Shown here piece by piece: positions 349-31,347 of a DNA stretch of 32,000 nt. How positions within the stretch are numbered: position 1 is the first letter of the stretch; every line of letters starts with the position of its first letter. The position numbers and the translations under genes are program-made. The notes below the pieces were generated by a model. It saw nothing but the letters and a program-made list of their open reading frames with translations, did no database searches and had not been told where the DNA came from. Origin of the DNA: Candidatus Methanophagaceae archaeon (GTDB lineage: Archaea > Halobacteriota > Syntropharchaeia > Alkanophagales > Methanospirareceae); the NCBI GenBank assembly GCA_003194425.1, contig PQXB01000001.1, positions 1,049,810 to 1,081,809 of the forward strand, in the 5' to 3' direction.

Positions 349-420
349 AAGGAGAGGTAAAAGGAGAAGTAAAAGGAGTGGTGAAAGGAGTGGTGAAAGG
401 AGTGGTGAAGAAGGAGAGCT
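349..420. repeat. 12-nt tandem array (about 6 units, 3 perfect: aaggagtggtga at 373-408) filling the nuoD-nuoH intergenic gap
   Basis: Read directly: aaggagaggtaa aaggagaagtaa a|aggagtggtgaa x3 then gaaggagagct. Every unit carries an AAGGAG SD-like core. Confidence 0.9.
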
Positions 421-425
421 AAAAA

Positions 426-1565
426 ATGCAAATACAAATACAGGAAGCAGTAAATCAAATAATGAGTGCAGTAGCGAGCAATCAGGTGAATGTGCCACTT
501 TTACAGCCGATTCTCGACTTGGTGGCACAAATTCCAATGGCAGGTTTCCTGGTCTCGTTCGTTCTTTGGAAGCCGTTTTTCGCAGCCCTGATTTGCCCGG
601 GGCTTTCTACACTCGGGATTTTGCTGCTCGTCTTCCCGTGGGTTGAGAGAAAGCTCTGCGGTAGGATTCAGTGGCGGGTCGGGCCGCACGAGATTGTGTG
701 GTGGCTGGGCGGGCTACCGCAAATAATGGCAGACTCAGTCAAGTTCCTCTTCCAAGAAGTGATTGTGCACAAGGACGCAGACCGACCTTACTACCTGCAG
801 TTCCCGTTCCTCTCGTTCATCGCCGCCCTCCTCCCGCTGCTCTTCATCAGTGCAGGAAATATTATCGCAATAGAAACGCCCTACGCGATACAGTTAATGC
901 TGGCGTTGATCTGTCTCTTCCCTCTCTTTATTCTCGGTCTCGGCTGGGCGTCTAACAACAGATTCTCGTTCATCGGGACCGTGCGGGAGGCGTTTATGTC
1001 TTTCGCCTACGAGATTCCGTTCATCATTGCGGTTCTCGCGATGATCGTTCTGTACGGCACTTCTAATCCGCTGCAGATGTCAAGCACAGGCGGACTGTTG
1101 GAGTGGGGACTTTTCCGTAATCCTGTTGCAGCATTCACATTTTTTGTCGCTGCTGCGATGGCGACTTCGCGGCTGCCCTTTGAAATCGCGGAGGCGGAGC
1201 AGGAGTTAGCTGCGGGACCGCATGTTGAGTATTCTGGGATTTCGTTCGGGCTCATTTATGTAATGTGCTACGAGAAGGCGTATATTTTGAGCGGCTTGAT
1301 GACGATTTTATTTCTTGGCGGGGGCAGCGGTCCTGCAATTTCGGGGCTTGGCGACCTCTCGGGTGCGGTGTGGTTCTTGGCGAAGACGGTGGTTGTGATG
1401 ACGACTTTGTTTGCTCTTCGGACGATTTACCCGCGGTACAGGCTTGACCAGGGTTTGAAAATCGGCTGGGGTGCGATGATTTCGTTGTCGCTGGTCGCAC
1501 TTGCGTTGTCGGTTGTGATTGTGTTGGTGCAGGGAGGAATTGGTGGTGTAGAGGGAGTGGTGTAG
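426..1565 (+). CDS. nuoH: Membrane subunit H (NuoH/FpoH/FqoH) of a complex-I-like oxidoreductase
   Basis: 379-aa polytopic ORF with the NuoH hallmark ...VERKLCGRIQWRVGPHEI...GLPQIMADSVKFLFQE. The true start may lie at a downstream Met. Confidence 0.9.
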   Translation: MQIQIQEAVNQIMSAVASNQVNVPLLQPILDLVAQIPMAGFLVSFVLWKPFFAALICPGLSTLGILLLVFPWVERKLCGRIQWRVGPHEIVWWLGGLPQIMADSVKFLFQEVIVHKDADRPYYLQFPFLSFIAALLPLLFISAGNIIAIETPYAIQLMLALICLFPLFILGLGWASNNRFSFIGTVREAFMSFAYEIPFIIAVLAMIVLYGTSNPLQMSSTGGLLEWGLFRNPVAAFTFFVAAAMATSRLPFEIAEAEQELAAGPHVEYSGISFGLIYVMCYEKAYILSGLMTILFLGGGSGPAISGLGDLSGAVWFLAKTVVVMTTLFALRTIYPRYRLDQGLKIGWGAMISLSLVALALSVVIVLVQGGIGGVEGVV

Positions 1566-1614
1566 AGGGAGTGGTGTAGAGGGAGTAGTGTAGAGGGAGT
1601 AGTGTAGGTAGAGT
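1545..1614. repeat. 14-nt tandem array (ggtgtagagggagt x3 perfect plus 2 degenerate) spanning the nuoH stop codon
   Basis: Units at 1545-1558, 1559-1572 and 1573-1586 are identical. Units at 1587-1600 and 1601-1614 are diverged. The nuoH stop TAG (1563-1565) lies inside unit 2. Confidence 0.92.
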
Positions 1615-1633
1615 AAGGAAGAGAGGTGTAAAT

Positions 1634-3491: not shown

Positions 3492-3572
3492 AAAGTGTGT
3501 AGTGTAAGTCTGAGTGTAGTGTAGTCTCGGCAAGTTTTGTTTCTGTCGTTGAGAGTTTTTTATTTTTTATCT

Positions 3573-4610: not shown

Positions 4611-4676
4611 GCCGGGAAAGAGCGGGAAAGAGTGGGAAAGGGCGGGGAAGGGTGCTGGGGGGGTGAGGGGGGTGGT
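4611..4676. repeat. Degenerate ~10-nt periodic G-rich tract between convergent genes; G-quadruplex-prone on the + strand
   Basis: gccgggaaag agcgggaaag agtgggaaag ggcggggaag ggtgctgggg gggtgagggg ggtgg. At least 8 runs of G3-G7 fall within ~60 nt. Confidence 0.8.
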
Positions 4677-5035
4677 CACTCCCTCGTCAACGCCCTTTCC
4701 CTCAGTTTGTCCTTCAAGTCCAATTTCGTTAGCACGACATTCGAGGGGTGCAGGTGTCGCGGCACCTCCGACAAGTCCGACCTCGCCACAACAACGCCCT
4801 CCACTGTTATTTTTCCCCGCTTCAAGTCGACGGACCTCACTTTCCCCTCTTTTCCCTTCTCGTCGCCCCGCACTACCCTCACCGTGTCCCCCTTCTTCAC
4901 AGGGAGACTTCTCCGCTCGTATTTCTCCCGCAGCCCCTCTGAAAGAGGCGCACCCAAAAACTTGTGTCTTAAATGCAGCGGTGCGTTAAACCGCGCTTTC
5001 CTCTGCTTTCTCGGTTGTTTTGATTTCATTTTCAT
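4676..5035 (-). CDS. rpl24: 50S ribosomal protein uL24 (archaeal L24P)
   Basis: [35 protein letters not shown]...[20 protein letters not shown]...[12 protein letters not shown]...HPSNV matches archaeal L24 (KOW domain) along its whole length. Confidence 0.9.
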
Positions 5036-5145
5036 CTCCTCAAACTACCCCAACCCTCGCCTTCACTCTGCCGAAGGTCGTTTTCATTTCAATTATCCTT
5101 ATCTTCGTCCTCTTCGCTTTCATTTCCGTTTCTTCTGTTCTTTTT

Positions 5146-5158
5146 CAAATATAAAAGG
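5146..5158 (+). promoter_or_regulatory. Putative TATA box for the GGR gene
   Basis: caaatataaaagg lies ~30 nt upstream of ATG 5185. Confidence 0.3.
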
Positions 5159-5184
5159 ATTAGGGGTTTGTAAGGTTTTTTAGA

Positions 5185-6534
5185 ATGCTTAAGCTTAAGT
5201 ACGATGTCGTCGTCGTAGGCGGCGGTCCGGCAGGCTGCATTGCAGCGAAATACGCAGCGAAGTCCGGGGCTTCTACACTGCTCCTCGAGGAGCATTCTGA
5301 AATCGGCGAGCCTGTTCAGTGCGCAGGACTTCTAAGCCGGAGGGCTGTGGAAGAGAGCGAACTGCGAGAGACTAAAGCCTTCGTGAACTGCGAGTTAAAG
5401 GGCGCGGTTCTTTACCCTCCCTCACACGCCCTCACTCACGCCCTCGCCCCTGCCCCCTCCTCTGCCCCCTCCTCTGCCCCCTCCTCTGCTCACGCCTCTG
5501 CTCACGAACTGAGAATTGAGTCTCCTCCGTCGTCAGGGAAAAGGGCGTTCGCAGTGAGCAGGAGTGCGTTTGACAAGGAACTGGCGAGAGCGGCGCAGAA
5601 AGCGGGAGCGGAAATAATTCTAAAGACCAAAGTCAAGGCGGTGAAGAAGAAGGCAGGGGAGGCGGGGAAGGCGGGGCTAACGGTAAGCACGGCGGGAGAA
5701 GGGGAAATCGGGGCACGAGTCGTCGTCGGTGCGGACGGCGTGAGGAGTGTTGTCGCAAAGACCGCGGGGGCGGGGCGGGAGGTCACAAAAAACTTTTTGA
5801 CCTGCGTGCAAATTGAAGGAAAATACGAGGTAGACGAGCCTTTTGCAGAGATTTTCGTGGGCAGAACCGTCGCACCGGGCTTCTTTGCCTGGGCAATTCC
5901 GCTCGGAGAAAGTTCTGGCACTGCCCGAATCGGGCTCTGCATTGACAGAAGGTTCTCACCCAGTCCCAGCCCTCTGCCGTTTTTAAAGAAACTTTTGTCA
6001 AACCACCCTGTCGTCGCCAAGAAATTCAACGGCACCCGACTGAACCTTACCCGACTAAACCTTACGGCGGGGAGAATTCCCCTCGCTCTCCCTCGACCAC
6101 AAACGACGGTAAAGACGGTAAAAGACGGCGGAGCAGGGGTGCTGCTGGTCGGGGACGCGGCAGCGCAAGTCAAGCCAGTTACAGGCGGAGGCGTCTACTA
6201 CGGTCTGAAGTGCGGAAAAATTGCGGGGCAGACGGCGGCAAAGGCGTGCTTGAGCGGGGACGCGGAAGTGCTGCGGGAGTACGAAGAGCGGTGGCAGAAG
6301 GAAATCGGGCAGGAAATCGCGTTCGGGCTGAAAATTCACAGGCTGAGGTGCGTGCTCAGCGACAGGGACTTTAACGCACTCTGCAAAGCAGTCTCAAAAT
6401 ACGACCTGACGCGGCTTTTAACAGACTACGGGGACATTGACTACCCCTCGCTCGCGTTTCGTGAAGTCTTGAAAAATCCCGGAATCATCAAATTAATGGC
6501 GAAAAATGTCATAAAATATTTATATGCAAAATAA
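5185..6534 (+). CDS. Geranylgeranyl reductase family flavoprotein (digeranylgeranylglycerophospholipid reductase-like) carrying repeat-derived insertions
   Basis: N-terminal FAD fold YDVVVVGGGPAGCIAAKYAAKSGASTLLLE; also VVGADG and LLVGDAA...PVTGGG motifs. At 449 aa it is ~50 aa longer than usual because of the tandem-repeat segments. Confidence 0.85.
   Translation: MLKLKYDVVVVGGGPAGCIAAKYAAKSGASTLLLEEHSEIGEPVQCAGLLSRRAVEESELRETKAFVNCELKGAVLYPPSHALTHALAPAPSSAPSSAPSSAHASAHELRIESPPSSGKRAFAVSRSAFDKELARAAQKAGAEIILKTKVKAVKKKAGEAGKAGLTVSTAGEGEIGARVVVGADGVRSVVAKTAGAGREVTKNFLTCVQIEGKYEVDEPFAEIFVGRTVAPGFFAWAIPLGESSGTARIGLCIDRRFSPSPSPLPFLKKLLSNHPVVAKKFNGTRLNLTRLNLTAGRIPLALPRPQTTVKTVKDGGAGVLLVGDAAAQVKPVTGGGVYYGLKCGKIAGQTAAKACLSGDAEVLREYEERWQKEIGQEIAFGLKIHRLRCVLSDRDFNALCKAVSKYDLTRLLTDYGDIDYPSLAFREVLKNPGIIKLMAKNVIKYLYAK
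5451..5510. repeat. In-frame 12-nt tandem repeat (tgccccctcctc x3 perfect, then tgctcacgcctc / tgctcacgaact)
   Basis: Units 5451-5462, 5463-5474 and 5475-5486 are identical. They encode APSS x3 followed by AHAS AHE. Confidence 0.92.
6034..6063. repeat. In-frame 15-nt tandem repeat x2 (acccgactgaacctt / acccgactaaacctt)
   Basis: One mismatch between copies. Encodes TRLNL TRLNL inside GGR. Confidence 0.85.
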
Positions 6535-6591: not shown

Positions 6592-7140
6592 ATGGCGAGG
6601 ATGTACGCGAGGAGAAGGGGGAAATCAGGTTCTAACCGCCCGTTTAACTTTAGCCAGAGGGCTGCGGCTCAAGTGGCACCTGAGTGGGCGGGCTTGGGCT
6701 TGACAGCGGAGGAAGTGGAGACGAGAGTGGTTGACCTGTACAACCAAGGACGTTCGACGAGCGAAATCGGAATTACGCTGCGGGACAGCCACGGCGTGCC
6801 GAGCGTTGTAGTGCGGACAGGGAAGAAAATAACGAAGATTTTGAAGGAGCGGGGAGTTGTGCCTGGGTCTGCTGGGACTGGGACTGGGTCTGGGACTGGG
6901 TCTGGGTCTGGGACTGGGTCTGGGTCAGAACTACCCGAGGACCTTCAGAATTTGATGCGAAAAGCGTTGAAAATACGGAGGCACCTTGAAGAGAACAGGA
7001 AAGATCTGCACAACAAAAGGGCGTTGCAGTTGGTGGAATCCAAGATTAGACGGCTTACGAAGTACTACACGAGGAAGAAAGTCATACCTGCAGAGTGGCG
7101 GTACAAACCGGGGGCTGCAGAATTTGTGATGATGCGGTGA
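6592..7140 (+). CDS. rps15: 30S ribosomal protein uS15 (S15P/S13e) with an internal Gly-Thr/Gly-Ser repeat insertion
   Basis: MARMYARRRGKSGSNRPF... N-terminus and a C-terminal S15 fold (...LQLVESKIRRLTKYY). ATG 6592 is preferred over TTG 6586 and is preceded by gaggag. Confidence 0.92.
   Translation: MARMYARRRGKSGSNRPFNFSQRAAAQVAPEWAGLGLTAEEVETRVVDLYNQGRSTSEIGITLRDSHGVPSVVVRTGKKITKILKERGVVPGSAGTGTGSGTGSGSGTGSGSELPEDLQNLMRKALKIRRHLEENRKDLHNKRALQLVESKIRRLTKYYTRKKVIPAEWRYKPGAAEFVMMR
6865..6927. repeat. In-frame hexamer array (gggtct/gggact, ~10 units)
   Basis: gggtct gct gggact gggact gggtct gggact gggtct gggtct gggact gggtct gggtca. Encodes GSAGTGTGSGTGSGSGTGSGS. Confidence 0.92.
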
Positions 7141-7227
7141 AACGGGAAAAGGGAAACAGGAAAGGGGAAAGAGAGAAGAAAAGATGAACTTGGAAAATGA
7201 AGGCAGGAAAGAAGGAGGATTTTAACG

Positions 7228-7581
7228 GTGGGCACGGTTAAACCGAGGTACATAAAAAGATTGGGACAGCAGTTGCTGAGGGACGTGCAGGCGTTCACGG
7301 ACGACTTCGAGCTGAACAAGAAGTTAGTGACTGAGAACACGAACATTGAGAGCAAGGGCATAAGAAACCGAGTGGCGGGCTACATTACTCACAAGAAGAA
7401 GAGGACGCAGGAGGAAGCCGAAGAAGTTGAAGAATTAGTAGTAGAGGCAGCAGCGGAAGTTGAAGAAACGAAAGAAGCCGAAGAAGTTGAGGTAGCAGCG
7501 GAAGTTGAAGAAACGAAGGAAGTAGAAGAAACGAAGGAAGTAGAAGAAGTTGAGGAGGAGGGGAAAGGAGGGGGGAGTTAA
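7228..7581 (+). CDS. rps17e: 30S ribosomal protein eS17 with a ~55-aa repeat-built acidic C-terminal tail
   Basis: GTG start. (M)GTVKPRYIKRLGQQLL...NKKLV...IESKGIRNRVAGYITHKKK is the complete S17e core. The remainder is EEAEEVEE...EETKEVEETKEVEEVEEE. Confidence 0.9.
   Translation: MGTVKPRYIKRLGQQLLRDVQAFTDDFELNKKLVTENTNIESKGIRNRVAGYITHKKKRTQEEAEEVEELVVEAAAEVEETKEAEEVEVAAEVEETKEVEETKEVEEVEEEGKGGGS
7507..7542. repeat. In-frame 18-nt tandem repeat x2 (gaagaaacgaaggaagta) within a larger ~45-nt imperfect duplication (7412-7506)
   Basis: 7507-7524 equals 7525-7542. gaagccgaagaagttga and gcagcggaagttgaagaaacgaa each occur twice upstream. Confidence 0.88.
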
Positions 7582-7582: not shown

Positions 7583-8494
7583 ATGTTAAAATTAGAATTA
7601 GAAGGTGTGTATCCGGCGCTGATAACACCGTTTACGAGGGACGACGAGGTGGACGAGGAAGGTCTGAGGCGGCTCGTAGAGTTCGTGGTTGAAGGAGGTG
7701 TCGCAGGAATCGTCCCGTGTGGCACGACCGGGGAGTCCGCGACGCTTTCGCAGGAGGAGCACGAGCGTGTGATTGATGTTGTGGTGGACTGTTCGAGGGT
7801 ACCGGTGATCGCAGGCACGGGCTCGAACAACACGAAGGAGGCGGTAGAGTTCTCGAAGTACGCGGAGGACGCGGGTGCTGACGCGTGCCTCTTGATTACG
7901 CCGTACTACAACAAGCCAAATGTGCGGGGATTGAAGGAGCATTTCAAGAGGATTGGGGACGCGGTGGAGCTGCCGTTAATTTTGTACAACATTCCCTCGA
8001 GGACGGGTCAAAATGTGAGTGCAGGGACGATGCTGGAGCTTGCGGCTGAGGTGGAGGGAATAAAGGGCGTGAAGGAGGCGTCTGGGGATTTGAAGCAGGT
8101 GGGTGCGATTTTAAGCGAGGTCGCGGAGCAGGGTTTGGATTTTACGGTTCTCGCAGGCGACGATTTTCTTACGCTTCCGATAATGAGTCTTGGCGGTAAG
8201 GGCGTGATTTCGGTGGCTGCGAATGTCGTGCCGCGGGAGATGTGCGAGATGGTGGACGCGGTGTTGAGCGGGGCGGCGGAGAAGGCGAGGGAGATTAATG
8301 TTAGGCTGTTCTCGTTGTTTGAGGCGATGTTTCTGGAGACGAATCCGATACCGGTGAAGAAGGCGGCGGAGATGCTGGGTTTGGTGGCGGCAGGGGCTGT
8401 TAGGCTTCCGTTGGGTAAGTTGAGTGAGGGGAACAGGGCGAAGTTGAGGGAGGTGCTGGAGGGGTTGGGGAAGATGAGGGGTTGGGGAAGATAA
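7583..8494 (+). CDS. dapA: 4-hydroxy-tetrahydrodipicolinate synthase (DapA)
   Basis: GVYPALITPF...GIVPCGTTGESATLS...YNKP...LYNIPSRTG...KEASGD are DapA/NAL-family motifs, including the Schiff-base Lys context. ATG 7583 lies 1 nt after the rps17e stop. Confidence 0.9.
   Translation: MLKLELEGVYPALITPFTRDDEVDEEGLRRLVEFVVEGGVAGIVPCGTTGESATLSQEEHERVIDVVVDCSRVPVIAGTGSNNTKEAVEFSKYAEDAGADACLLITPYYNKPNVRGLKEHFKRIGDAVELPLILYNIPSRTGQNVSAGTMLELAAEVEGIKGVKEASGDLKQVGAILSEVAEQGLDFTVLAGDDFLTLPIMSLGGKGVISVAANVVPREMCEMVDAVLSGAAEKAREINVRLFSLFEAMFLETNPIPVKKAAEMLGLVAAGAVRLPLGKLSEGNRAKLREVLEGLGKMRGWGR
8461..8494. repeat. 17-nt tandem repeat x2 (ggggttggggaagatga / ggggttggggaagataa) forming the dapA C-terminus and stop codon
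   Basis: 8461-8477 versus 8478-8494 has one mismatch. The dapA stop TAA (8492-8494) is the end of copy 2. Confidence 0.85.
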
Positions 8495-8743
8495 GGGGGA
8501 TATAAAATTTTTGGTAGTGCTTAAGCGACTTGGATTCTGCGAGTGTTGCCGGCATTGTCGCACCGGTCGCACCGGCGAAGGACGGTGTGTCTTCTCGGTG
8601 ATTTATAAAACGCATTTAGGTCTTCCTAGCCTGAAGGGCAGGGGCAAAAATTCCTTGCGAGAAAAAGAGCGTTCGTTACTTTTAACTGATAAAATATTTT
8701 AGATTTTTGCTGCGGAGGGTAGGGTAGAAGCGGGAAGAAGGGG

Positions 8744-19607: not shown

Positions 19608-19628
19608 AAATGAAAAAGGAGAAGGGAG

Positions 19629-21973: not shown

Positions 21974-22036
21974 AGAATTAGAGAGTAAGGAGCTTTAGAT
22001 TTAGGTGGAAAATTAAAAATAAATAGGTAACAAAAA

Positions 22037-22525: not shown

Positions 22526-22560
22526 TTTCGGAAAAACATAACCAACTGACTTTGGAGAAG

Positions 22561-22959: not shown

Positions 22960-22998
22960 ACACAAAAATAATTAATAATTAAAAAATGCCAAGTAAAA

Positions 22999-24051
22999 AT
23001 GCCGACTAAAAACGCTTTGATAACAGGAATAACAGGGCAGGACGGAGCATATCTCGCAAAATTCCTGTTAGAGAAAGGATACGCAGTTTACGGCACCTAC
23101 AGACGACTCTCAACACCAAACTTCTGGAGACTGCAGTACCTAAATATTTTTGAGCAGGTGGTTTTAATACCCGCGGATTTGGTTGACGCAGGGTCGATGG
23201 TGGAGGCGGTTAAAATCTCAGAACCCGATGAAATATACCATTTAGCAGCACAGAGTTTTGTAGGCGCTTCGTTTGAGCAGCCGATCGGTACGGGGGAAAT
23301 AACTGGTTTAGGTGTAACGAGGATTTTAGAAGCTATTCGGCAGATTAACCCCGCGATAAAGTTCTACCAAGCCTCAACCAGCGAACTCTACGGAAATGGA
23401 CATTCCTCAAGCTTGACAGAGAACTCACCCTTTCAGCCCTCAAGTCCTTATGCCGCAGCAAAATTATACGGCTACTGGCTGACAAAAATGTACAGGGAAA
23501 GCTACAAATTCTTTGCCTGCAACGGAATTCTTTTTAATCACGAAAGTCCCTTGAGGGGCTTGGAATTTGTAACACGAAAAATATCTAACGCAGTCGCAAA
23601 GATTTCTTTAGGACTTGAAAAAGAACTTCATCTCGGCAACTTAGAGGCAAAAAGAGACTGGGGTTACGCACCCGAATATGTAGAATCTATGTGGCGGATG
23701 TTGAAAGAAAAAGAGCCCGACGATTATGTGATCGCAACGAACGAGGCTCATAAAGTAGGCGAATTTGTAGAAAAAGCGTTTGACAGTCTTGGTTTAGACT
23801 GGCAGGAATATGTTGAAGTAGACAAAAGATTTTTTAGACCGCAGGATGTTAATTTTTTGCAGGGCGATTATTCGAAAGCGAAGAGGAAATTAGCCTGGAG
23901 GCCGAGGGTAAAATTCGACAAACTCGTAGAGAGAATGGTGAAAGAAGATTTAGAAAGGTGGGCGAGGTGGCAGAAAGGAGAGAGATTTCCTTGGGACGCA
24001 CCGAATTATCCGAATGAGTCAAATATCTTAACACGAACATTAAAAGTATGA
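22999..24051 (+). CDS. gmd: GDP-mannose 4,6-dehydratase
   Basis: ALITGITGQDGAYLAKFLLEKGY.VYG..RR...FYQASTSELYG...SPYAAAKLY..W....YRESY..F.CNGILFNHESP.RG are canonical Gmd motifs. Confidence 0.92.
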   Translation: MPTKNALITGITGQDGAYLAKFLLEKGYAVYGTYRRLSTPNFWRLQYLNIFEQVVLIPADLVDAGSMVEAVKISEPDEIYHLAAQSFVGASFEQPIGTGEITGLGVTRILEAIRQINPAIKFYQASTSELYGNGHSSSLTENSPFQPSSPYAAAKLYGYWLTKMYRESYKFFACNGILFNHESPLRGLEFVTRKISNAVAKISLGLEKELHLGNLEAKRDWGYAPEYVESMWRMLKEKEPDDYVIATNEAHKVGEFVEKAFDSLGLDWQEYVEVDKRFFRPQDVNFLQGDYSKAKRKLAWRPRVKFDKLVERMVKEDLERWARWQKGERFPWDAPNYPNESNILTRTLKV

Positions 24052-24098
24052 AGAAAAGTTGGAAAATCTAACGAAGAAGGTAAAATATTTAAAACAAA

Positions 24099-25193
24099 AT
24101 GATTCCAGTAGCAGAACCTTCTTTAGGTGAAGAAGAGCTGGCAAATGTGACAGAAGCAGTAAAGAGTGGTTGGATTTCATCAAAAGGGAGATTCATTGAA
24201 GAGTTTGAAAATGAGTTCGCCAAATATTGCGGTGTAAAATATGGCGTTGCAACTTCTAACGGGACTGTTACATTACATTTGGCATTGAAAGCACTCGGAA
24301 TTGAAGCCGGAGACGAAGTCATCGTTCCTGATTTGACTTTCGTTGCAACTGCAAATGTAGTTACCTACTGTAATGCAAGACCTGTTTTTGTTGATTCTCA
24401 TCCACAGTACTGGTGTGTAGATCCAGAGAAGATTGAGGAAAAGATTACGCCAAAGACTAAAGCGATTATGCCTGTTCATTTGTACGGGCATCCTTGTGAT
24501 ATGGGGATGATATTGGAAATTGCAGAAGATTATGATTTATATGTCGTAGAGGACGCGGCAGAATCGCATGGTGCCGAGTACAAAGGGAAGAGAGTAGGCT
24601 CATTCGGTGAGATAAACTGCTTTAGTTTTTACGGAAATAAAATAATATCTACAGGAGAAGGAGGAATGTGTGTAACAAAAGACGAAGAGCTCGCAGGAAA
24701 AATGAGAATCTTGAGAGATCACGGAATGAACCCTAACAAGAGATATTGGTACGATGTTGTTGGGTACAACTACCGGATGACGAATTTGCAGGCAGCAATT
24801 GGCGTTGCCCAGCTAAGGAAACTTGACAGGTTCGTAGAGAAAAAGAGAGAGATTGCGAGGTTGTATGAAGAAGGGCTGTCAGAATTAGCTGAAAGGGGGT
24901 TGATAAAATTACAACCAGAAATGGCTTGGGCGAAGTGCGTTTATTGGATGTACTGCATTTTAATTGAGGATAAATTTGGTAGAAGTAGAAATGAATTGAT
25001 GAAGAAATTAGAAGAAAACGGAATAGAGACGAGACCGTTCTTTTATCCAATGCATCTAATTCCGCCTTACGAGTCTAATAAGGCTTTTCCTGCTGCCGAG
25101 CAAATATCAAGAGAAGGGATTAATTTGCCTTCTGCTGTGGGTTTAAAAGAGGAAGAGATAAAGTTTATTTTGGAGAAGGTAAAATCAGGTTGA
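24099..25193 (+). CDS. DegT/DnrJ/EryC1/StrS-family PLP-dependent sugar aminotransferase (GDP-perosamine-synthase-like by context)
   Basis: IPVAEPSLGEEE...VKSGWISS.G....FE.EFA...G.KY....SNGT.ALHLAL...FS.F.GNK.I..GEGGM are family motifs. It lies next to gmd. Confidence 0.88.
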   Translation: MIPVAEPSLGEEELANVTEAVKSGWISSKGRFIEEFENEFAKYCGVKYGVATSNGTVTLHLALKALGIEAGDEVIVPDLTFVATANVVTYCNARPVFVDSHPQYWCVDPEKIEEKITPKTKAIMPVHLYGHPCDMGMILEIAEDYDLYVVEDAAESHGAEYKGKRVGSFGEINCFSFYGNKIISTGEGGMCVTKDEELAGKMRILRDHGMNPNKRYWYDVVGYNYRMTNLQAAIGVAQLRKLDRFVEKKREIARLYEEGLSELAERGLIKLQPEMAWAKCVYWMYCILIEDKFGRSRNELMKKLEENGIETRPFFYPMHLIPPYESNKAFPAAEQISREGINLPSAVGLKEEEIKFILEKVKSG

Positions 25194-25948
25194 TGTTTTT
25201 TAAAAAAGAGGTGATAAAAATAAATTCTCTTCACAGTAAACTTTCAAAAGCGTTAAAAGAGCCTAAATCGGCATTGGATTATCTTTTCAGAATGCGGAAA
25301 CTCAGCACTTTCTTACCTGAGCTACCTGACCTCAAGAATAAAGAAAGACTTAAAATTAAAAAGTTCTTTGAAGAGGCGAGTGAAGTTAGAGCGGAAGTAG
25401 AGGCAGTTTTCAATCCTTCTTCGGCTGCGTGCAGAACGCCTGATTTGGAAGTCCGCCTCTTGCCGCCGTCTGTTATTTACAGCGTTGTGAGAGCGACGAA
25501 GCCCGAGATTGTTGTAGAGACTGGGGTCAACAACGGAATTTCTACCTATTTTATCCTAAGTGCGTTAGAGCGTAACGATTCTGGGCTGCTCTACTCGATA
25601 GACATAAAAGAGAAGATTGTTTCAAACAGATTTAAAGAAGAGAAGGAAATAGGGTGGCTTGTTCCCGAGGAGCTTAGAAGAAGGTGGACTTTCTTGCTTG
25701 GCGATAGTAAGGAGGTGCTGCCGAGAATTTTAGCTGAAGTTAAGAGAGTGGATATTTTTATGCTTGACAGTGGGGATACTTACGAGCATAAATGTTTCGA
25801 GTTTAGAACCGCTTGGAGACACTTGCGAGAAGGAGGTGTCCTCCTTTCAGACGATATTTTTCTGAACAAGGCATTTGAGGATTTTATAAAAGAGGTGAAA
25901 CCTTCTCGCACTGCTACTTTCTCTTTGCTTGGGCTTTTAAGGAAATGA
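25193..25948 (+). CDS. Class I SAM-dependent methyltransferase (Methyltransf_24/CmcI-like)
   Basis: The VVETGVNNGIST... glycine-rich loop and MLDSGDTYEH are present. ATG 25193 overlaps the DegT stop (tgATG). Confidence 0.6.
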   Translation: MFFKKEVIKINSLHSKLSKALKEPKSALDYLFRMRKLSTFLPELPDLKNKERLKIKKFFEEASEVRAEVEAVFNPSSAACRTPDLEVRLLPPSVIYSVVRATKPEIVVETGVNNGISTYFILSALERNDSGLLYSIDIKEKIVSNRFKEEKEIGWLVPEELRRRWTFLLGDSKEVLPRILAEVKRVDIFMLDSGDTYEHKCFEFRTAWRHLREGGVLLSDDIFLNKAFEDFIKEVKPSRTATFSLLGLLRK

Positions 25949-25960
25949 AGGAAAGGAAAA

Positions 25961-27541
25961 TTACAAGAACCTGCTTATTATTTTCCTTACCCACTCGGAC
26001 CTCGTTCCCAACCGCTCGTCTAATGCTCGCATAATAATCAAATCCTCCTCTTCAAAGCATTTAAAAATCAAAAGCAAGAAGAAATAAAGAACGACAAAAA
26101 CGAGAAGCATTCCTGCCACCGAGACTACTTTCGAGAATAAAAAAAGACCAACTAGATATTCCGTCGCTGCATAAACAACCGCAACTGAGATTACAGCGGC
26201 TAAAACAGGTTTTACATAATTCACACGATAAGGTTGCATCCTCGCAATCAGATAGACAAAAGCTAAATAAACTACATTCATTAACGCAAGCGAAAGACCG
26301 GTCGCAATTGCCGCTCCGTTTATTTCGTAGAGCGGAATAAGAAGAAGATTCAAGACAAAATCGGCTGTTGCACCAACAAAACTGCAGCACATTATTATTT
26401 TTGTTCTTCCGTAAGCCGTCAAAACCGAAGTTGTCGGACCCACCAAAGAGGTCACCAAGTACCCAAAGGCTAAAATAGAAAGAGCAAGCGCACCTCTAAC
26501 AAACTCTTCTCCAAACATAATTCTCATTATGAAATCCGAGAAAAGAGCCATTAATAAAAATCCGGGTAAAACGAGCGAGACAATCCATTTTGTTATCACA
26601 CTGTATGTTTTTTTCAGATCGTTTAGCATCTTTGTTGCATAAAGTTCAGTGACAACAGGCATAAAAATTGCTGCAAAAGCTGTAGAGACGATGCTCAGTA
26701 ATCTCGCAGTAGAGAGTGCTGCGTTGTAGATTCCCACTGTGGAAGCCGTAGAAAAATACCCGAGCATAAGCGTGTCGATCCAGTACATTACCAACCCGGC
26801 AATGCCCACAAAGATGAGAGGGAAAGAGAATGAGAAAATCTCCCGATCTATTGAGACTGCTTTTACTCTGCTTTTGAAAATCGGAAATACCTTCTTCTCG
26901 AGGAAATAAAGAGCCAAGAAAGGCATCAACACGATTGCAAGAACCCAGCCGAGAGCGACGCCTGTTACTCCAAAGCCCAACACGAGAAAGGCGACCATCG
27001 CAATTAATTTGAATAAATTTTGGAAGAGGTCGTCCGTGTAGACTTTATATTTCAGGGTTTGAAACCCAATCGTTCCTGCTATGAAACTCTGAGATAAAGT
27101 CAAGAAGGGAATACCGATTGAGAAAATCCTTAAAACTGGTGTTAGCCTGGGTTCGTGAAAAACATTAGTAGAAATCCAATCTGCACCAAGGAGAACAAGT
27201 GTCGCGGAAATAAGGCTTAAAGGAAAGCTAATTTTAAATGCGCTTAGAATTGTGCCTTTTATCCTTCCTTCGTCGCCCTTTCCCTTGTAAAATGAGGTGA
27301 ATCGTCGTATCCCCGAGGGCAAGCCAACCGAGGAGAGCGTAACTGCAATTGACATTCCTGCGAAGCCGAGTGAGATCAAGCCGTAGTCAGAAGCACCAAG
27401 AAATCTTGCGATGATTATTCTTGAGAAATAGCCGAAGACCATTCCGATGAAAGTTCCGGTGAAGCCTACTCCTGCTCCTTTGGCGATTTTTCGCAGCGAT
27501 TCGTTTAGATGTGATTTTTCATTTTCGCTTGGGATTTTCAT
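25961..27541 (-). CDS. Polysaccharide/oligosaccharide flippase (Wzx-like, MOP superfamily)
   Basis: 526 aa and about 12-14 predicted TM helices. The N-terminal ...LRKIAKGAGVGFTGTFIGMVFGYFSRIIIARFLG..DYG is typical of the Polysacc_synt family. Confidence 0.8.
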   Translation of the reverse strand: MKIPSENEKSHLNESLRKIAKGAGVGFTGTFIGMVFGYFSRIIIARFLGASDYGLISLGFAGMSIAVTLSSVGLPSGIRRFTSFYKGKGDEGRIKGTILSAFKISFPLSLISATLVLLGADWISTNVFHEPRLTPVLRIFSIGIPFLTLSQSFIAGTIGFQTLKYKVYTDDLFQNLFKLIAMVAFLVLGFGVTGVALGWVLAIVLMPFLALYFLEKKVFPIFKSRVKAVSIDREIFSFSFPLIFVGIAGLVMYWIDTLMLGYFSTASTVGIYNAALSTARLLSIVSTAFAAIFMPVVTELYATKMLNDLKKTYSVITKWIVSLVLPGFLLMALFSDFIMRIMFGEEFVRGALALSILAFGYLVTSLVGPTTSVLTAYGRTKIIMCCSFVGATADFVLNLLLIPLYEINGAAIATGLSLALMNVVYLAFVYLIARMQPYRVNYVKPVLAAVISVAVVYAATEYLVGLFLFSKVVSVAGMLLVFVVLYFFLLLIFKCFEEEDLIIMRALDERLGTRSEWVRKIISRFL

Positions 27542-27552
27542 TTTTATCTCGC

Positions 27553-28962
27553 TTAACTCTTTAACCCTGTCAGAATCCGCTTCAAAGTCTCCTCGTCTGA
27601 CGGGTAGTCGCAGTCCAGAACCTTCTCGAGCCGTAGAGGTAGACCGTCCATTCTGTAGGCGATTCCGCCAGTCTCGACGCCTGTAATCGCGGTAGGAAGC
27701 ACGACAGAAGCGAACTGCGTGGTTGGGGTCTCGAAAGGGTCGATTAGAATTAGAGGCAACTCGCAGTCGCAGAGTCTCCTCGCTGCGTCCTTCGGGAAAG
27801 AGGAGAAAGGGTCTGCACCAACGACCAACGCTGCGTCCACCTCGCCTCGCTTCAGCACGTCCAGAACCGTCGTCCTGCCAGGCTCGAAGATTTTGTCAGG
27901 TGGCTGCGAGCCACGCGAGAAATCGACCCCAAAAGGGTAGCCGGTCTCGCGCAAGAGGAGTTGCACCGCACCAGTCACATTAAAATGCCCCTTCATCGGA
28001 AAGAGCACGAACCGCACGCCCGCGCGGTTGAGCGTCTCAACCAAAGACAAAATCGCCTCGATCTTCTTCGCAGCACCCTCGCTTGCGAGAACACCGAGTC
28101 CCACGAAAATAACGCCGTAAAACGCTCTCTTCAGTCGGTCTGCGATTTTTACAAGCTCTTTCAACTCGCTCGGCTCGCTCGTCCTGCTCGGCTCCCCTAC
28201 CTCGCCCTTTACCAGCCGCTCCAAAGTCTCCGCTATTTTCGCGTCACCCCCTTCGTCTCCTTCTCCCTCTCCACCTCCGGGCTTCACTTGTAAGAACCAC
28301 CTCGAGACCTTCTTCAACTCGCTCTCAACCACTTCAACACAAACCACCTCCCTGTCCAAGACGCCTCTCATCGCGTACCTCCCTACAGGGTAGACCGAGA
28401 ACTTGGAGAGGTGTCTCGGGTGCGAGGCAACAGGATTCGCACCCCAGTAAACTACAACGTCCGCGTTCTCCCTTATTTCGTCGAGCAGTGCGTAGTGAAA
28501 AGGGAACCTCCCCTTTTGCAACGCCGAGTACAAGAGGCTGTGGCAGACCGACTCCGAGGTGTCAAAGACGCCGCGCTTGAGTTTCGCGATCTTAAGTGCC
28601 ACGCGCTGTGCCTCGTACCCGCTGTTGCAAAGTCCGTAGACAAGCGGTTTCTTCGCTGTCCGCAGTATTTCAACCGCTCTTTGCACCGCTTCTTCGTAGT
28701 CTGTTTCTTCGCCGTCTACTCTTGGCTTTTTTATTCTTCGCTCGTCAGTCCTCTCTGCACTCCCTGCCGCTGCCGACCGAAATTTTGCCACACCGAGTTT
28801 GCAGGCGTTTTTTACCCCCGTTATTTTGTTTTTTTCGGCGTCCACCGAAATAACCAAGTCGTCGCAGAGACAGGCACAGAAGGGGCACACCGCAGCCTCC
28901 GTTACCCTTTCCCTTCTTTTCGGAGGTAGTCGGGCGTTCACCTCACCGCCAAGTCTTGACAT
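27553..28962 (-). CDS. fwdB: Formylmethanofuran dehydrogenase subunit B (molybdopterin-binding; Cys rather than Sec type), orphan
   Basis: VCPFCACLCDDL...NACKLGVAKF...AKKPLVYGL...EAQRVALKIA...DVVVYWGANPVASHPRH matches FwdB/FmdB along its length. No fwdA, fwdC or fwdD is nearby. Confidence 0.85.
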   Translation of the reverse strand: MSRLGGEVNARLPPKRRERVTEAAVCPFCACLCDDLVISVDAEKNKITGVKNACKLGVAKFRSAAAGSAERTDERRIKKPRVDGEETDYEEAVQRAVEILRTAKKPLVYGLCNSGYEAQRVALKIAKLKRGVFDTSESVCHSLLYSALQKGRFPFHYALLDEIRENADVVVYWGANPVASHPRHLSKFSVYPVGRYAMRGVLDREVVCVEVVESELKKVSRWFLQVKPGGGEGEGDEGGDAKIAETLERLVKGEVGEPSRTSEPSELKELVKIADRLKRAFYGVIFVGLGVLASEGAAKKIEAILSLVETLNRAGVRFVLFPMKGHFNVTGAVQLLLRETGYPFGVDFSRGSQPPDKIFEPGRTTVLDVLKRGEVDAALVVGADPFSSFPKDAARRLCDCELPLILIDPFETPTTQFASVVLPTAITGVETGGIAYRMDGLPLRLEKVLDCDYPSDEETLKRILTGLKS

Positions 28963-30406
28963 TAGAAATAATCACAGAACCAGGTTCCGAGTCGCGAACC
29001 GCCCTCTCCAAAGCCGCGTCCAGCCTGTCCGAAAAAAACACCCGCTCGCTCTTCACTTTTATTTTGCCTCTAAACTTCTCGCCCACAATTATTGTCTCCG
29101 CAAACTCCGCCGCCCGCTTCTCAACTACGCCCTTCAGCTCTTCCAACTCCACGCCCTCGCAGACATATTCCGACTCCTCGCCGACGATTAAAATCATTTT
29201 TCCCTTCTCTGAAATCCTCCTCGCCTTCTCCGCTATTTCGTCCAGGAACTTCAATTTCGTGCCCGAGTTGGAGTTGTCGATCAGGAACCGCCCCTTTAGC
29301 TTTCCCACTTTCATCCTGCCTCCTACTGCCGAGAGGTTCTCGGTGCAGACCTCTTCTGGCGGGACGCCGAGGCTCAAGACTGCGCAGAACGCCGCTTCTA
29401 AAGCGTTCTTGTAGTAGTCACCCCCCAAGCCAAAAGCGCTGAACTTTTTCTCGCCGCTTACAGTTAGAGAACCGCGGTTTGCAGTTTTTAGCCCGTTAAA
29501 GACGACTTTGCTCTCGCCTTCGTTTAGCCACAGGTTTGCACCCTCGCCGCCAAAGGTGTTCTCGTTAAACCCGTTTTCTTCACTCTTCTTTGATAAAATC
29601 TTTGTAAGAAAATTTTTTGGGAGGACGACGACGCTTCGGGGTTTGTCTTTGTCTTTACCTGCGTCTGCGTAGTTCTTTAGCGAGGCGATTTTCGCGGCAG
29701 AGGCGTCTTTCGTGCCTCCTGCGATTCTGTAATCTTCGTTCAGACTTGTTACCACGCCGACATCGCCGACCCCTGTCAAACCCAGCGAGACCTCAAAGAC
29801 CGCCACCTCTGGCGTCAGCCCCTTCTCTCTCGCCAGCCTCGCAACTTTCAAGACATTCGCAGGCGTGCCGCCTATTCTGGGAAACCGCACCTCTCCCTTT
29901 TCTCCTCCCTCTCTCCCTCTCCCTCCCCCTCCCGTCCCTTCCCCTCCCGCTGCTGCCGGCCTGAATCTCGTTGCGGAGCTGGTGTGAGAAAGCACCGCCT
30001 TGTCTTTCAGCAGCTGGCAAATTAGTTCGCAGACCGCAGTCTTTCCAACCGTTCCCGTTACTTCCACCACTTTTGTGCCTGCGTTTGTGCCTGCGTTTGT
30101 GCCTGCGTTTGTGCCTGCGGTTGCGAAGAGGTTCTTTGAGTTTAAGGCTGCGATTTCTTTTACCGCGGTGTGGTGCGTCGCAAAGGGAATTCCAGCCTTC
30201 CGAGCCCGCTTTACAACCTCAAAGTTCGGGTTCAAGTGAACCGGTGCGAGAACCAAGTCGTAGTCCAAGTCGCCACTGAACGAGGGTTCTCTGTAAGGGT
30301 TGAAAACCTCCGCGTCTTTGCCAAGTTCTTTCAACTCTTCTGCGATGACTTCTGCCCCGTGAATCGGGTCTAAAACCAAGATTTTTTCCGCTTCTTTTAG
30401 GTTCAT
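28943..30406 (-). CDS. Mur-ligase-family ATP-dependent ligase (possibly coenzyme F430 synthetase CfbE-like; exact function unresolved)
   Basis: The P-loop VTGTVGKT is in the Mur-ligase position, with a C-terminal Mur_ligase_C-like part. The N-terminal ILVLDPIHG... is as I recall for archaeal CfbE-like proteins. The 3' end overlaps the fwdB start by 20 nt. Confidence 0.65.
   Translation of the reverse strand: MNLKEAEKILVLDPIHGAEVIAEELKELGKDAEVFNPYREPSFSGDLDYDLVLAPVHLNPNFEVVKRARKAGIPFATHHTAVKEIAALNSKNLFATAGTNAGTNAGTNAGTKVVEVTGTVGKTAVCELICQLLKDKAVLSHTSSATRFRPAAAGGEGTGGGGRGREGGEKGEVRFPRIGGTPANVLKVARLAREKGLTPEVAVFEVSLGLTGVGDVGVVTSLNEDYRIAGGTKDASAAKIASLKNYADAGKDKDKPRSVVVLPKNFLTKILSKKSEENGFNENTFGGEGANLWLNEGESKVVFNGLKTANRGSLTVSGEKKFSAFGLGGDYYKNALEAAFCAVLSLGVPPEEVCTENLSAVGGRMKVGKLKGRFLIDNSNSGTKLKFLDEIAEKARRISEKGKMILIVGEESEYVCEGVELEELKGVVEKRAAEFAETIIVGEKFRGKIKVKSERVFFSDRLDAALERAVRDSEPGSVIISNVKTWR
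30075..30120. repeat. In-frame 12-nt tandem repeat x3.8 (gtgcctgcgttt, + strand) inside the Mur-ligase gene
   Basis: 30075-86, 30087-98 and 30099-110 are identical, followed by the partial unit gtgcctgcgg. Encodes TNAG x3 just upstream of the P-loop. Confidence 0.93.
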
Positions 30407-30426
30407 TTTCGCTTGCTAAACGCTGT

Positions 30427-30448
30427 GTAACACAAATGTAACACAAAT
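30427..30448. repeat. Perfect 11-nt tandem repeat x2 (gtaacacaaat) in the 5' region of the Mur-ligase gene
   Basis: 30427-30437 equals 30438-30448. It lies 21-42 nt upstream of the start codon at 30406 (minus strand). Confidence 0.85.
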
Positions 30449-30462
30449 GCAAATAAAGTTTG

Positions 30463-31347
30463 CTACGGCGAGAGGGTCAGAAAGACGACGGTGTTGTTGA
30501 CTGGCGGTTCGGGTCGGACCCTGAAATATTCTTTAAACCGGTCGGGCAGTTCCAAAGCCGAACCAGAGGCAGAGGGCGTCTCCAAGAGCCGTCTGAGCCC
30601 CTTCTCGTAGACGCGGTAGGAGACCTTCGTTCCAGCAGGCAGCACCGCTGCGAGGTGGTCAAAAATCTCCCGCTTGGGTTCTGCCGCCGCAGCCACCAAG
30701 ACAAGTTCGGACCGCTCTTTAAGAGGCAGTGAAAAATGGTCGCCCTCGAGAATTTCCACCTGCCCCGAGAGCCCCAGCCTCGCCAGCACTCGTCGTGAAA
30801 GTTCCGCCCGCTCGCGTTCCCGCTCAATTCCAACCCCCCGCAGCCCGTACCGCGCGCAGAGAACAATCAGACTCAAGGGCAGCGGACCGCTGCCGAGAAA
30901 GAGGACGCGGTCGCCCGGTTTTAGTCCTGCTCCCTGAAATTCAGTCCGAGCGAGTTGGATGTAGTTGGGGAAGTAGGCGAAATTTTTTAGCAGTTCCCAC
31001 GGCTCTCTGCTCGCCAGCACGCGTTCCGCCTCTGCGATTTCGAGCCTCAAACTGTAAAGATTTCTGAACCTGACGACAGCCGCAAGCACGGAATTCTGCG
31101 CTGGTTCTCCAAGTTGTCCAAGTTGTCCAAGTTGTCCAAGTTGTCCAAGTTTGCCGACGACCTCCTCCTGCACCGACTGGTCGTCCACCTCAAGCGCAGC
31201 CAACTCGTCAAGTCGGTAAAAAAAGGTTTTAAGGTGGTTCGAGCGGCTGTTAAGGATTTCGCGAGCGGTGAGGTTCTTGGTCGCTTCGTAAATTCTCAAG
31301 AGTTCCGCGATTATTGCCTGTGGCGAATGCCCCTTTCTCTTACTCAT
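30463..31347 (-). CDS. Nicotianamine synthase-like protein (NAS family SAM-dependent aminobutyryl/aminopropyl transferase), copy 1
   Basis: GDRVLFLGSGPLPLSLIVL matches the NAS (I/L)GSGPLPLT motif. Length and layout resemble archaeal NAS-like enzymes (thermonicotianamine synthase type). Confidence 0.72.
   Translation of the reverse strand: MSKRKGHSPQAIIAELLRIYEATKNLTAREILNSRSNHLKTFFYRLDELAALEVDDQSVQEEVVGKLGQLGQLGQLGQLGEPAQNSVLAAVVRFRNLYSLRLEIAEAERVLASREPWELLKNFAYFPNYIQLARTEFQGAGLKPGDRVLFLGSGPLPLSLIVLCARYGLRGVGIERERERAELSRRVLARLGLSGQVEILEGDHFSLPLKERSELVLVAAAAEPKREIFDHLAAVLPAGTKVSYRVYEKGLRRLLETPSASGSALELPDRFKEYFRVRPEPPVNNTVVFLTLSP
30783..30957. repeat. 175-nt segment 100% identical to 31826-32000 (direct, between the NAS paralogues)
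   Basis: Compared base by base. The identity runs to the window edge, so it may be longer. A second patch, 30593-30675, equals 31600-31682 (83 nt). Confidence 0.95.
31108..31152. repeat. In-frame 9-nt tandem repeat x5 (tccaagttg x4 perfect plus tccaagttt)
   Basis: Units at 31108, 31117, 31126, 31135 and 31144. On the minus strand they encode (K)LGQLGQLGQLGQLGE in NAS copy 1. Confidence 0.93.

Follow-up and report, generated by a model that had tools for sequence, protein, structure and literature searches.

Tandem repeats resembling those of Borgs in a housekeeping gene region of an ANME-1 archaeon

Results

Gene content and origin of the window

We analyzed a 32,000-nucleotide (nt) stretch of DNA, the window, from a Candidatus Methanophagaceae archaeon, in which short head-to-tail repeat arrays lie both in and between genes. 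The plus strand begins with the end of the gene for a NuoD-like Fpo subunit, followed by genes for FpoH, FpoI and FpoF, then TFE, an HD-domain protein, geranylgeranyl reductase (GGR) and the ribosomal proteins uS15 and eS17, and then DapA, an AAA_22-like protein and enolase. A glycosylation/phosphonate cluster on this strand encodes GT2, GT1, LicD, phosphoenolpyruvate (PEP) mutase, phosphonopyruvate decarboxylase and an iron-containing alcohol dehydrogenase (Fe-ADH), and further on nucleotidyl- and CDP-alcohol transferases, a TagF-like transferase, an epimerase, DegT and a methyltransferase. Genes on the minus strand code for uL24 (4676-5035), a flippase, a FwdB-like molybdopterin protein, a Mur-ligase-like protein and two nicotianamine-synthase-like paralogues (NAS1 and NAS2). 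The plus-strand open reading frame (ORF) at 4632-5183 is spurious, the true gene there being that for uL24. Rfam and tRNA scans of the window gave no matches.

The nearest enolases to the copy in the window, at 72-79% identity, are from metagenome-assembled genomes (MAGs) of anaerobic methanotrophic archaea of group 1 (ANME-1) and Syntrophoarchaeia. Proteins of the window have exact matches in a 'Candidatus Methanophagaceae archaeon' MAG (locus tags C4B55_05xxx), and their sequences are also those of 'ANME-1 cluster archaeon ex4572_4' and of one 'Ca. Methanospirareceae' MAG. Seven repeat-bearing proteins of the window and FpoH had no exact match, probably owing to different alleles or start calls. 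ANME-1 GB37 (PQXB01), a 1.53-Mb genome in four contigs from a Guaymas 37 °C enrichment, and ex4572-4 form one species (Chadwick et al. 2022). GB37 is the most likely source genome, and the window is probably native chromosome of this ANME-1 (Methanophagales) 'GB37/ex4572-4' species, the focal species below, from Guaymas Basin hydrothermal sediments. Other assemblies of the species (L082-L086, L088-L095 and L001, from NCBI, ENA, JGI and Logan) could be aligned with the window over up to 18.6 kb at a single-nucleotide divergence of 0.3-0.8%. Together they cover ~45-50 kb of unique sequence, made up of the window's own region and the strain-specific DNA embedded there.

Number and density of arrays

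Tandem Repeats Finder (TRF) reports ~34 arrays in the window (Table 1). A preliminary description, made from the sequence alone, had listed more than 20 with their positions and unit lengths; TRF recovers every one and adds about ten, such as those with units of 9 nt at 5649, 7/14 nt at 7139, 13 nt at 16365, 16957 and 22982, 6 nt at 20282 and 9 nt at 28165, and those at 29890-29949 and 31720-31763. With a strict finder of perfect repeats (units of 6-60 nt, at least two copies, at least 18 nt in all), we found 22 arrays, which make up 2.25% of the window. Windows shuffled by Markov models of order 1, 3 or 5 or by local composition have 0.2-0.6 such arrays (maximum 3), so the observed number is not random.

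Perfect arrays are found at 0.69 per kb in the window and 0.57 per kb in 13 other assemblies of the focal species (146 kb). Across 45 loci of other ANME-1/Syntrophoarchaeia (401 kb) the density is 0.117 per kb, and across 77 unrelated prokaryote loci (1.27 Mb) it is 0.069. For arrays of at least three copies, the corresponding values are 0.22, 0.14, 0.015 and 0.011 per kb. In its housekeeping chromosome, the focal species has 10-20 times as many short, near-perfect tandem repeats as its closest relatives.

The preliminary description saw the arrays as a window-wide population of mostly base-identical copies that had recently expanded. Arrays are indeed numerous, but their spread is uneven, with 1.1-1.2 per kb in core segments of GC 0.53-0.55 and 0.13 per kb in a glycan/phosphonate island of GC 0.41 (12.1-27.5 kb). 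Near-identical strains do differ by whole units at most arrays, but about half of all arrays fall short of 95% perfection; these, at 71-92%, appear decayed. Their ages are thus mixed, with perfect two-copy births and perfect arrays of 3-5 copies next to decayed arrays of 71-85% identity; decayed examples lie at 13966-14089, 20282, 28165 and 29890 and in the invariant polypurine spacer at 7139-7227. As arrays of every age lie side by side, the process has been active for some time.

Reading frame and position

All 20 arrays wholly inside ORFs of the corrected gene map have units that are a multiple of three nucleotides (3n), compared to 4 of the 14 (29%) that are intergenic or cross a gene boundary (Fisher p = 7.6e-6). 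The rule put forward in the preliminary description, 3n units inside ORFs and mostly other lengths outside, therefore holds. The 29% is not different from the neutral 1/3. A frame filter operates on the arrays. Purifying selection acting on mutation that ignores the frame would leave just such a pattern, so the 3n rule alone is no proof of selection for repeats. No ORF body contains a non-3n unit, and phase-variable contingency loci were rejected on that ground. The sole frame-shifting array alters the last 4-6 residues of DapA; this 17-nt duplication is tolerated because it is just 34 nt before the stop codon.

The non-coding 5% of the window has 41% of the arrays in it or at its edge, and arrays are ~13 times denser per base in non-coding DNA. 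Relative to spacer arrays, in-frame genic arrays are ~4-fold under-represented per base against a uniform frame-blind process. The non-coding excess and the genic deficit both argue for purifying selection and not for selection favoring the inserts. Genic arrays are mostly terminal (the eS17 tail, the DapA and FpoH C-termini, the TagF-like N-terminus) or in linkers, with enolase as the exception.

Composition and origin of the units

The arrays have a mean sense-strand purine fraction of 0.74 compared to 0.57 +/- 0.02 in random genic segments, and both A (0.363, background 0.277) and G (0.402, background 0.292) are enriched. Purine-rich units on the coding strand, noted in the preliminary description, characterize 28 of 33 arrays; the other five include the APSS array of GGR (purine fraction 0.16). 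The encoded peptides are enriched in E (2.4-fold), G (2.2-fold), T, A and S, as had been described, but not in lysine (ratio 0.89), which had been named with them. C, W and Y do not occur in them, and hydrophobic residues make up a fraction of 0.13 compared to 0.37 in all proteins of the window. The uS15 insert (residues 92-111) has an AlphaFold2 confidence score (pLDDT) below 50 between confidently modelled domains and is predicted to be a disordered linker, which agrees, along with the scarcity of hydrophobic residues, with the earlier view that such peptides are probably disordered.

No unit is common to two loci (0 of 378 pairs identical), so each array was built from its own local sequence. 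A flanking partial repeat of at least 3 nt is present at 40% of two-copy arrays, compared to 8% expected, and the other 60% have 0-2 nt. Array birth hence needs no appreciable microhomology. A model of slippage driven by microhomology was rejected on these figures and on the case of enolase, where the TTGAG...TTGAG pair near the duplication has a spacing of 20 instead of 18 nt and just 1 nt of flank matches perfectly. CRISPR arrays were rejected as well, as all arrays are head to tail without spacers and Rfam gave no matches.

The intergenic arrays that directly precede fpoH, fpoI, ppm and the TagF-like gene (348-424, 1543-1623, 13966-14089 and 19616-19678) carry a Shine-Dalgarno (SD)-like GGAG(G/T)G in every unit and may influence translation initiation.

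Variation among strains

Nearly all indels of at least 2 nt between strains (~22-23 of ~24) are gains or losses of whole tandem units, and each strain pair differs by 6-11 indels of repeat-unit size. Four loci have gone from one copy to two: enolase (18 nt, 423 to 429 aa), dapA (17 nt), the Mur-ligase-like gene (18 nt, in L095) and the gene for the CDP-OH-transferase (CDP-alcohol phosphatidyltransferase, PF01066; 9 nt, in L090). Single-copy alleles of all four are present in other strains. The arrays are real, and both births and changes of unit number happen. Like variable number tandem repeats (VNTRs) and minisatellites, they consist of tandem units within ~6-100 nt and are polymorphic in copy number among strains.

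Comparison with sister species

The gene order TFE-HD-uL24-GGR-uS15-eS17-DapA is the same in sister Methanophagales genomes, which lack all of the inserts and have 0-0.10 arrays per kb. Their proteins are shorter: GGR has 408-421 aa in sister species and 440-449 aa in the focal species, uS15 152-160 and 170-185 aa, eS17 62-69 and 105-117 aa, and DapA 295-296 and 301-303 aa. When aligned, the Methanocaldococcus jannaschii enolase (2PA6) has a six-residue gap exactly at the duplicated FSEKLR. The duplication maps to the 2PA6 segment ...S/EAVRMGSEVYH, which is not an obvious loop; in enolase structures the site is probably the start of a helix. The arrays are specific to the focal lineage. Two suppositions of the preliminary description are confirmed by these alignments, namely that core proteins have acquired lineage-specific inserts and that, given a gene order conserved with other ANME-1 genomes, the context is a chromosomal housekeeping one.

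Two candidate causes were rejected. G60ANME1, from a 60 °C culture, has just 0.14 arrays per kb, so thermophily does not account for the trait. Sister loci are alike in purine fraction (0.52-0.58), which speaks against stronger purine loading.

Between uS15 and eS17, sister species encode a 72-76-aa MamI-like ORF (L149, 10491-10709; L151, 10491-10721) or, in L150, an unannotated 61-aa ORF. The focal species has at this position an 88-nt polypurine spacer (window 7141-7227) that does not vary among strains.

Three loci of an ANME-1 lineage whose FwdB-like protein is 59% identical (L108, L109 and L114) have 0.3-0.56 arrays per kb, all short and two-copy; this lineage is at most mildly elevated, which could be a weaker form of the same trait or noise. 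The densest of the 77 unrelated control loci is that of Ca. Tariuqbacter arcticus (L032, 15 kb), at 0.66 per kb with five arrays of at least three copies. A cluster of Rrp41 proteins that vary in length belongs to Ca. Methanospirare jalkutatii; it was rejected as a second repeat-rich species, since its length differences come from start and stop calls and not from repeat number. The Rrp41 search, made with a query from the sister locus L149, did not return the focal species within its 120 best matches.

Table 1. Tandem arrays in the window and their variation among assemblies of the focal species (strict, strict perfect-repeat finder, named for some of its 22 arrays; strains, strain comparison).
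Position	Strand	Unit and copies	Location and encoded peptide	Detection	Variation and remarks
348-424	+	12 nt, 6.2 (AAAGGAGxGGTx)	fills nuoD-fpoH spacer	TRF	SD-like GGAG in each unit; one more unit in L082
1543-1623	+	14 nt, ~5	spans fpoH stop codon (1563-1565) into fpoH-fpoI spacer	TRF, strict	+14 nt in L082, +24 nt in L086
3288-3309	+	9 nt, 2.4	FpoF, SVGSVGS	TRF, strict	
3497-3525	+	17 nt	fpoF-tfe spacer	strains	~1.7 copies in window, 2.7 in L086, 3.7 in L082
4613-4654	+	10 nt, 3.8 (CGGGAAAGAG)	between convergent HD and uL24 genes	TRF, strict	
5440-5506	+	12 nt, 5.6	GGR, APSS/AHAS repeats	TRF	part of 26-aa insert lacking in sister species
5649-5676	+	9 nt imperfect, 3.1	GGR, KAGEAGKAG	TRF	
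6034-6065	+	15 nt, 2.1	GGR, TRLNL x2	TRF	5-aa insert relative to sister species
6101-6128	+	9 nt, 2.9	GGR, TVKTVK	TRF, strict	
6872-6926	+	6/18 nt, 9	uS15, (G[TS])n interdomain linker	TRF	at least 8 length alleles in species (170-185 aa); not in any other orthologue
7139-7227	+	7/14 nt, decayed (7139-7170)	polypurine uS15-eS17 spacer	TRF	no difference among strains
7440-7553	+	45 nt, 2.4, with nested 18 nt, 2.7	eS17, acidic C-terminal tail (EVEETK...)	TRF	no tail in sister species; 2, 1 or 0 extra 18-nt units among strains
8459-8498	+	17 nt (non-3n) duplication	last dapA codons	strict, strains	also found by TRF; C-terminus ...GKIRGI (stop) becomes ...GKMRGWGR (stop); single-copy allele in L082-L085
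8557-8575	+	9 nt, 2.1	dapA-AAA spacer	TRF	replaced by 22-nt x2 array in L082
8793-8821	+	15 nt, 1.9	AAA_22-like protein, FEAGG FEAG	TRF	fixed across strains
10319-10355	+	18 nt duplication	enolase, FSEKLR x2	strict, strains	also found by TRF; two copies in window, L001 and L082 (3/9 assemblies); one in L083-L086, L088, L089
11066-11127	+	14 nt, 4.4	begins at enolase stop codon	TRF	4, 3 or 2 copies by strain
12273-12310	+	18 nt, 2.1	GT1 glycosyltransferase, KLEERG x2	TRF, strict	
13966-14089	+	15/45 nt polypurine, ~8	fills licD-ppm spacer	TRF	15-nt and 39-nt indels among strains
16365-16389	-	13 nt, 1.9	ppdA/ppdB junction	TRF	
16957-16982	+	13 nt, 2.0	upstream of Fe-ADH gene	TRF	
17246-17277	+	12 nt, 2.7	Fe-ADH, EAEVEEEVEA	TRF	
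19627-19678	+	21 nt, 2.5	TagF-like gene start, MGQKERR MGQKERE	TRF	unit doubles SD and ATG, giving two in-frame starts; no array in L090, altered in L088 and L089
20282-20320	+	6 nt, decayed	TagF-like protein, NASANANTEANA	TRF	
20385-20431	+	15 nt, 3.1	TagF-like protein, GKEGE x3	TRF	2 copies in L088
22982-23012	+	13 nt imperfect, 2.4	epimerase gene start	TRF	
28165-28194	-	9 nt, decayed	FwdB-like protein, EPSRTSEPSE	TRF	
29890-29949	-	decayed polypurine repeat (sense strand)	Mur-ligase-like protein, GGEGTGGGGRGREGGEKGE	TRF	
30072-30123	-	12 nt, 4.3	Mur-ligase-like protein, (GTNA)n	TRF	3, 4 or 5 copies by metagenome
30426-30449	.	11 nt, 2.2	Mur-ligase-like gene-NAS1 spacer	TRF, strict	
31104-31151	-	9 nt, 5.3	NAS1, (GQL)n	TRF, strict	
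31720-31763	-	6/9 nt	NAS2, KERKERERNESESER in place of NAS1 KERSE	TRF	

Strain-variable DNA and neighboring genes

The glycosylation/phosphonate cluster (12150-27550) has a GC of 0.38-0.46 compared to 0.52-0.56 in its flanks, is strain-variable and has ~9-fold fewer perfect repeats. It looks like a horizontally exchanged island. Relative to L088, L089, L090 (4470-11060) and L091 (7141-7792, a Logan assembly of the same sequencing run), the window is missing ~6.6 kb at 21961-22511. The missing genes encode NeuB, CTP_transf_3, GFO_IDH and a methyltransferase, and the remnant is a truncated cytidylyltransferase at 22037-22525 (162 instead of 236 aa). Either this is a strain-variable glycan island or the sequence was joined during MAG assembly. 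Another strain-specific segment is a 6.9-kb cassette between uL24 and GGR in L083 (700-7630) that is not in the window. It has a GC of 0.41, no perfect tandem repeats, and genes for an acylphosphatase-like protein, a CdvC/Vps4-like AAA ATPase, Snf7/PspA-like and tubulin/FtsZ-like proteins, three unknown proteins and a TSP3-repeat protein.

Within the cluster, ppdB, for the phosphonopyruvate decarboxylase beta subunit (minus strand, ~15776), ends in TAA in L082, L084 and L086 and has CAA at this codon in the window (plus strand TTAGGT to TTGGGT). Without this stop, the ORF is 41 aa longer and overlaps the PEP mutase gene at its 3' end. At the end of the window, the nicotianamine-synthase-like paralogues (30463-31347 and 31413-32000) adjoin and are ~81% identical in nucleotide sequence, each with a different insert, (GQL)n or KERKERERNESESER. 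Several metagenome contigs terminate near this pair.

Discussion

How the arrays may arise

We consider it probable that the arrays reflect local tandem duplication and unit slippage at a very high, lineage-specific rate, with purifying selection as a filter. Local misalignment of DNA synthesis in replication or repair would occur at an unusually high rate in the focal lineage. In a first step, 6-22 nt (occasionally ~45 nt) of local sequence would be duplicated head to tail; the new array would then gain and lose whole units, and arrays that no longer change would decay through point mutation. The process itself would be blind to frame, with purifying selection afterwards removing the products that cannot be tolerated. 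Inside ORFs, 3n units alone would persist, chiefly at permissive sites such as termini and interdomain linkers; short spacers and the final few codons of genes could retain units of any length. The visible outcomes are lengthened polypurine, SD-like repeat spacers between genes, largely disordered E/G/S/T/A-rich inserts or tails in uS15, eS17, GGR, DapA and enolase, and protein-length polymorphism among strains otherwise more than 99% identical. Most of the arrays would then be non-adaptive. The molecular step is probably slippage or template misalignment during replication or repair.

Several observations weigh against this explanation. The 60% of two-copy arrays with 0-2 nt of flanking microhomology are barely above chance, so slipped-strand mispairing between pre-existing direct repeats is not obviously the birth route. 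Some arrays, among them the two FEAGG copies of the AAA_22-like protein and the polypurine uS15-eS17 spacer, do not vary among strains and may have a function. Array density tracks GC content and the division between native and island DNA; the unevenness could come from accumulation over time in resident DNA or from composition dependence. The sample of the focal species is small and confined to the region of the window. Finally, nothing in the window bears on the cause of the raised rate.

Alternative explanations

Adaptive repeat formation, as proposed for Borgs, is an unlikely alternative source of the arrays as a whole. According to this hypothesis, repeats would create new disordered regions (acidic ribosomal tails and linkers), regulatory repeat RNAs or multiplied ribosome-binding sites through which expression is tuned, and copy-number variation would supply rapid adaptability. 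Selection was argued from very similar data in the Borg paper (PMC9879509). The repeat peptides are enriched in disorder-promoting residues and the uS15 insert is a predicted disordered linker; several intergenic arrays multiply an SD-like GGAG just before start codons, the tagF array doubling both SD and ATG, and some arrays are fixed across all strains. However, the non-genic 3n fraction is the neutral one and genic 3n arrays are under-represented per base compared to spacer arrays. In addition, the housekeeping enzymes concerned work without inserts in all sister species, and the enolase duplication, outside any obvious loop, is in just three of nine assemblies. An adaptive role is possible for single arrays, such as the FEAGG pair, the SD-like upstream arrays and the doubled SD and ATG of the TagF-like gene, but the statistics do not require it.

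That the repeat-rich DNA is itself a Borg-like giant extrachromosomal element, or was shaped in trans by the replication machinery of one, is very improbable. The Borg rule set is matched in its perfect units, 3n units in ORFs with about one third 3n outside, locus-unique units and strain variability, and to some degree in its partial flanks. Borgs also carry ribosomal-protein and metabolic genes, and the lineage has a long branch, with uS15 identity falling from 93% within the species to 63% with the next relative. Yet the order TFE-HD-uL24-GGR-uS15-eS17-DapA is chromosomal in other ANME-1 MAGs, and both strands carry genes. Where repeats abound there is no drop in GC (0.53-0.55); few repeats are found in the low-GC islands that vary among strains. 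GB37, the most likely source of the 1.19-Mb contig, is a 92%-complete genome from an enrichment culture for which no second ANME-1 genome is listed.

Short-read contigs do end at arrays, as all four ends of L001 (8538-11099) and L087 (7494-8556) are in or beside one and the copy number in any single assembly may thus be wrong, but that assemblers made or mis-sized the repeats is scarcely credible given ordered allelic series (0/1/2, 2/3/4 and 3/4/5 units) common to different groups, assemblers, samples and databases, arrays that are all far below read length, and reading frames that stay open.

Comparison with known repeat systems

In the Borg tandem repeats of Methanoperedens, units inside ORFs are all 3n and 14-38% of intergenic units are 3n (Schoelmerich et al. 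2023, PMC9879509). The resemblance noted in the preliminary description is thus borne out, since all genic units are 3n here too and the intergenic 29% falls within the Borg range. Both systems have short, mostly perfect, head-to-tail and locus-unique units from local sequence; flanking partial repeats, which exceed chance in Borgs, accompany 40% of the two-copy arrays here. Unit number varies within or between close populations, nearly all indels being unit changes (here seen between assemblies); homologues elsewhere lack the repeats, the peptides are cysteine-free and rich in disorder-promoting residues, and the repeat sequence has a sense-strand bias. Unlike Borg repeats, those described here lie, judging from the use of both coding strands and from housekeeping synteny, on a chromosome of ANME-1 (order Methanophagales) and not on a giant linear Methanoperedens element with terminal inverted repeats and one coding strand per replichore. 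The arrays are shorter and lower in copy number: by Borg criteria (at least 50 nt and at least three perfect units), they cover 0.18-0.20% of bases, which short-read assemblies may understate; Borgs reach 0.62% and Methanoperedens no more than 0.01%. The base bias is to purines (A 0.36, G 0.40) instead of to A alone. Borg repeats are borne mainly by extracellular or membrane proteins, whereas the bearers here are uS15, eS17, enolase, DapA, GGR, FpoF, Fe-ADH and cytoplasmic transferases. The phenomenon works like Borg repeats, outside that class of elements.

Bacterial VNTRs or minisatellites, such as the mycobacterial interspersed repetitive units (MIRU-VNTR) that serve in strain typing, and simple-sequence contingency loci of host-adapted bacteria also change by whole units among strains, in and between genes, and the changes are attributed to slippage or misalignment. 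The arrays here share the whole-unit changes and both kinds of location. Contingency loci number a few dozen per genome, lie in or upstream of surface, restriction-modification or virulence genes, and are often non-3n, switching genes on and off. Here there is instead about one array per kb of core DNA, in housekeeping genes, and no frame-shifting genic array save that at the end of dapA.

Plasmodium falciparum and similar eukaryotes have species-specific, length-polymorphic low-complexity inserts between conserved blocks, with a composition that mirrors coding-strand bias; the usual interpretation is that slippage produced them and that loops tolerate them. Like these, the inserts of the focal species are species-specific, biased and length-polymorphic and are found in ordinary enzymes and ribosomal proteins. 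They differ in being in a compact 1.5-Mb prokaryote genome, mostly nucleotide-perfect and caught at the stage of going from one copy to two. Yeast deficient in rad27/FEN1 offers a mechanistic analogue, as its mutation spectrum is mostly tandem duplications of a few to ~100 nt together with repeat instability. A spectrum dominated by tandem duplication and unstable repeats is common to both. The rad27 duplications are typically bounded by direct repeats of 3-12 nt, unlike the majority of two-copy arrays here. Prokaryotic housekeeping families usually lack low-complexity regions (Persi et al. 2023, PMC10120016).

Significance

Our literature search found no paper reporting such repeats for ANME-1, in keeping with the earlier belief that they had not been described. 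What is new is repeat hypermutability of a Borg-like or VNTR type on an archaeal housekeeping chromosome; Borg repeats and VNTR loci themselves were known. Perfect tandem repeats with 3n units in ORFs have so far been treated as a signature of Borgs and mini-Borgs, and have even been used to separate Borg from host DNA. Since the syndrome is found on the housekeeping chromosome of another methanotroph lineage, it is not tied to the Borg replicon type.

The finding has practical sides. Short-read assemblies split at the arrays and protein clustering separates their alleles, and in the ANME-1 populations of Guaymas and Pescadero the arrays could mark strains at high resolution. For the biology of the organism, it means that a prokaryote tolerates length-polymorphic inserts in uS15, eS17, enolase, DapA and GGR. 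A repeat-rich species next to syntenic, repeat-poor sisters is also a natural contrast for tracing the cause.

We put forward as a tentative idea, which we hold to be possible and on balance doubtful, that a Borg-like repeat process came to act on the ordinary archaeal chromosome of one ANME-1 species through a replication or repair component that was changed in, or acquired by, this lineage alone. In that case, the factor could be found by contrasting the focal species, for which a 37 °C enrichment and published transcriptomes exist, with its repeat-poor sisters. Genome-wide tandem repeats would then be no hallmark of extrachromosomal elements but a switchable mutational state, one that can remodel even ribosomal proteins and glycolytic enzymes.

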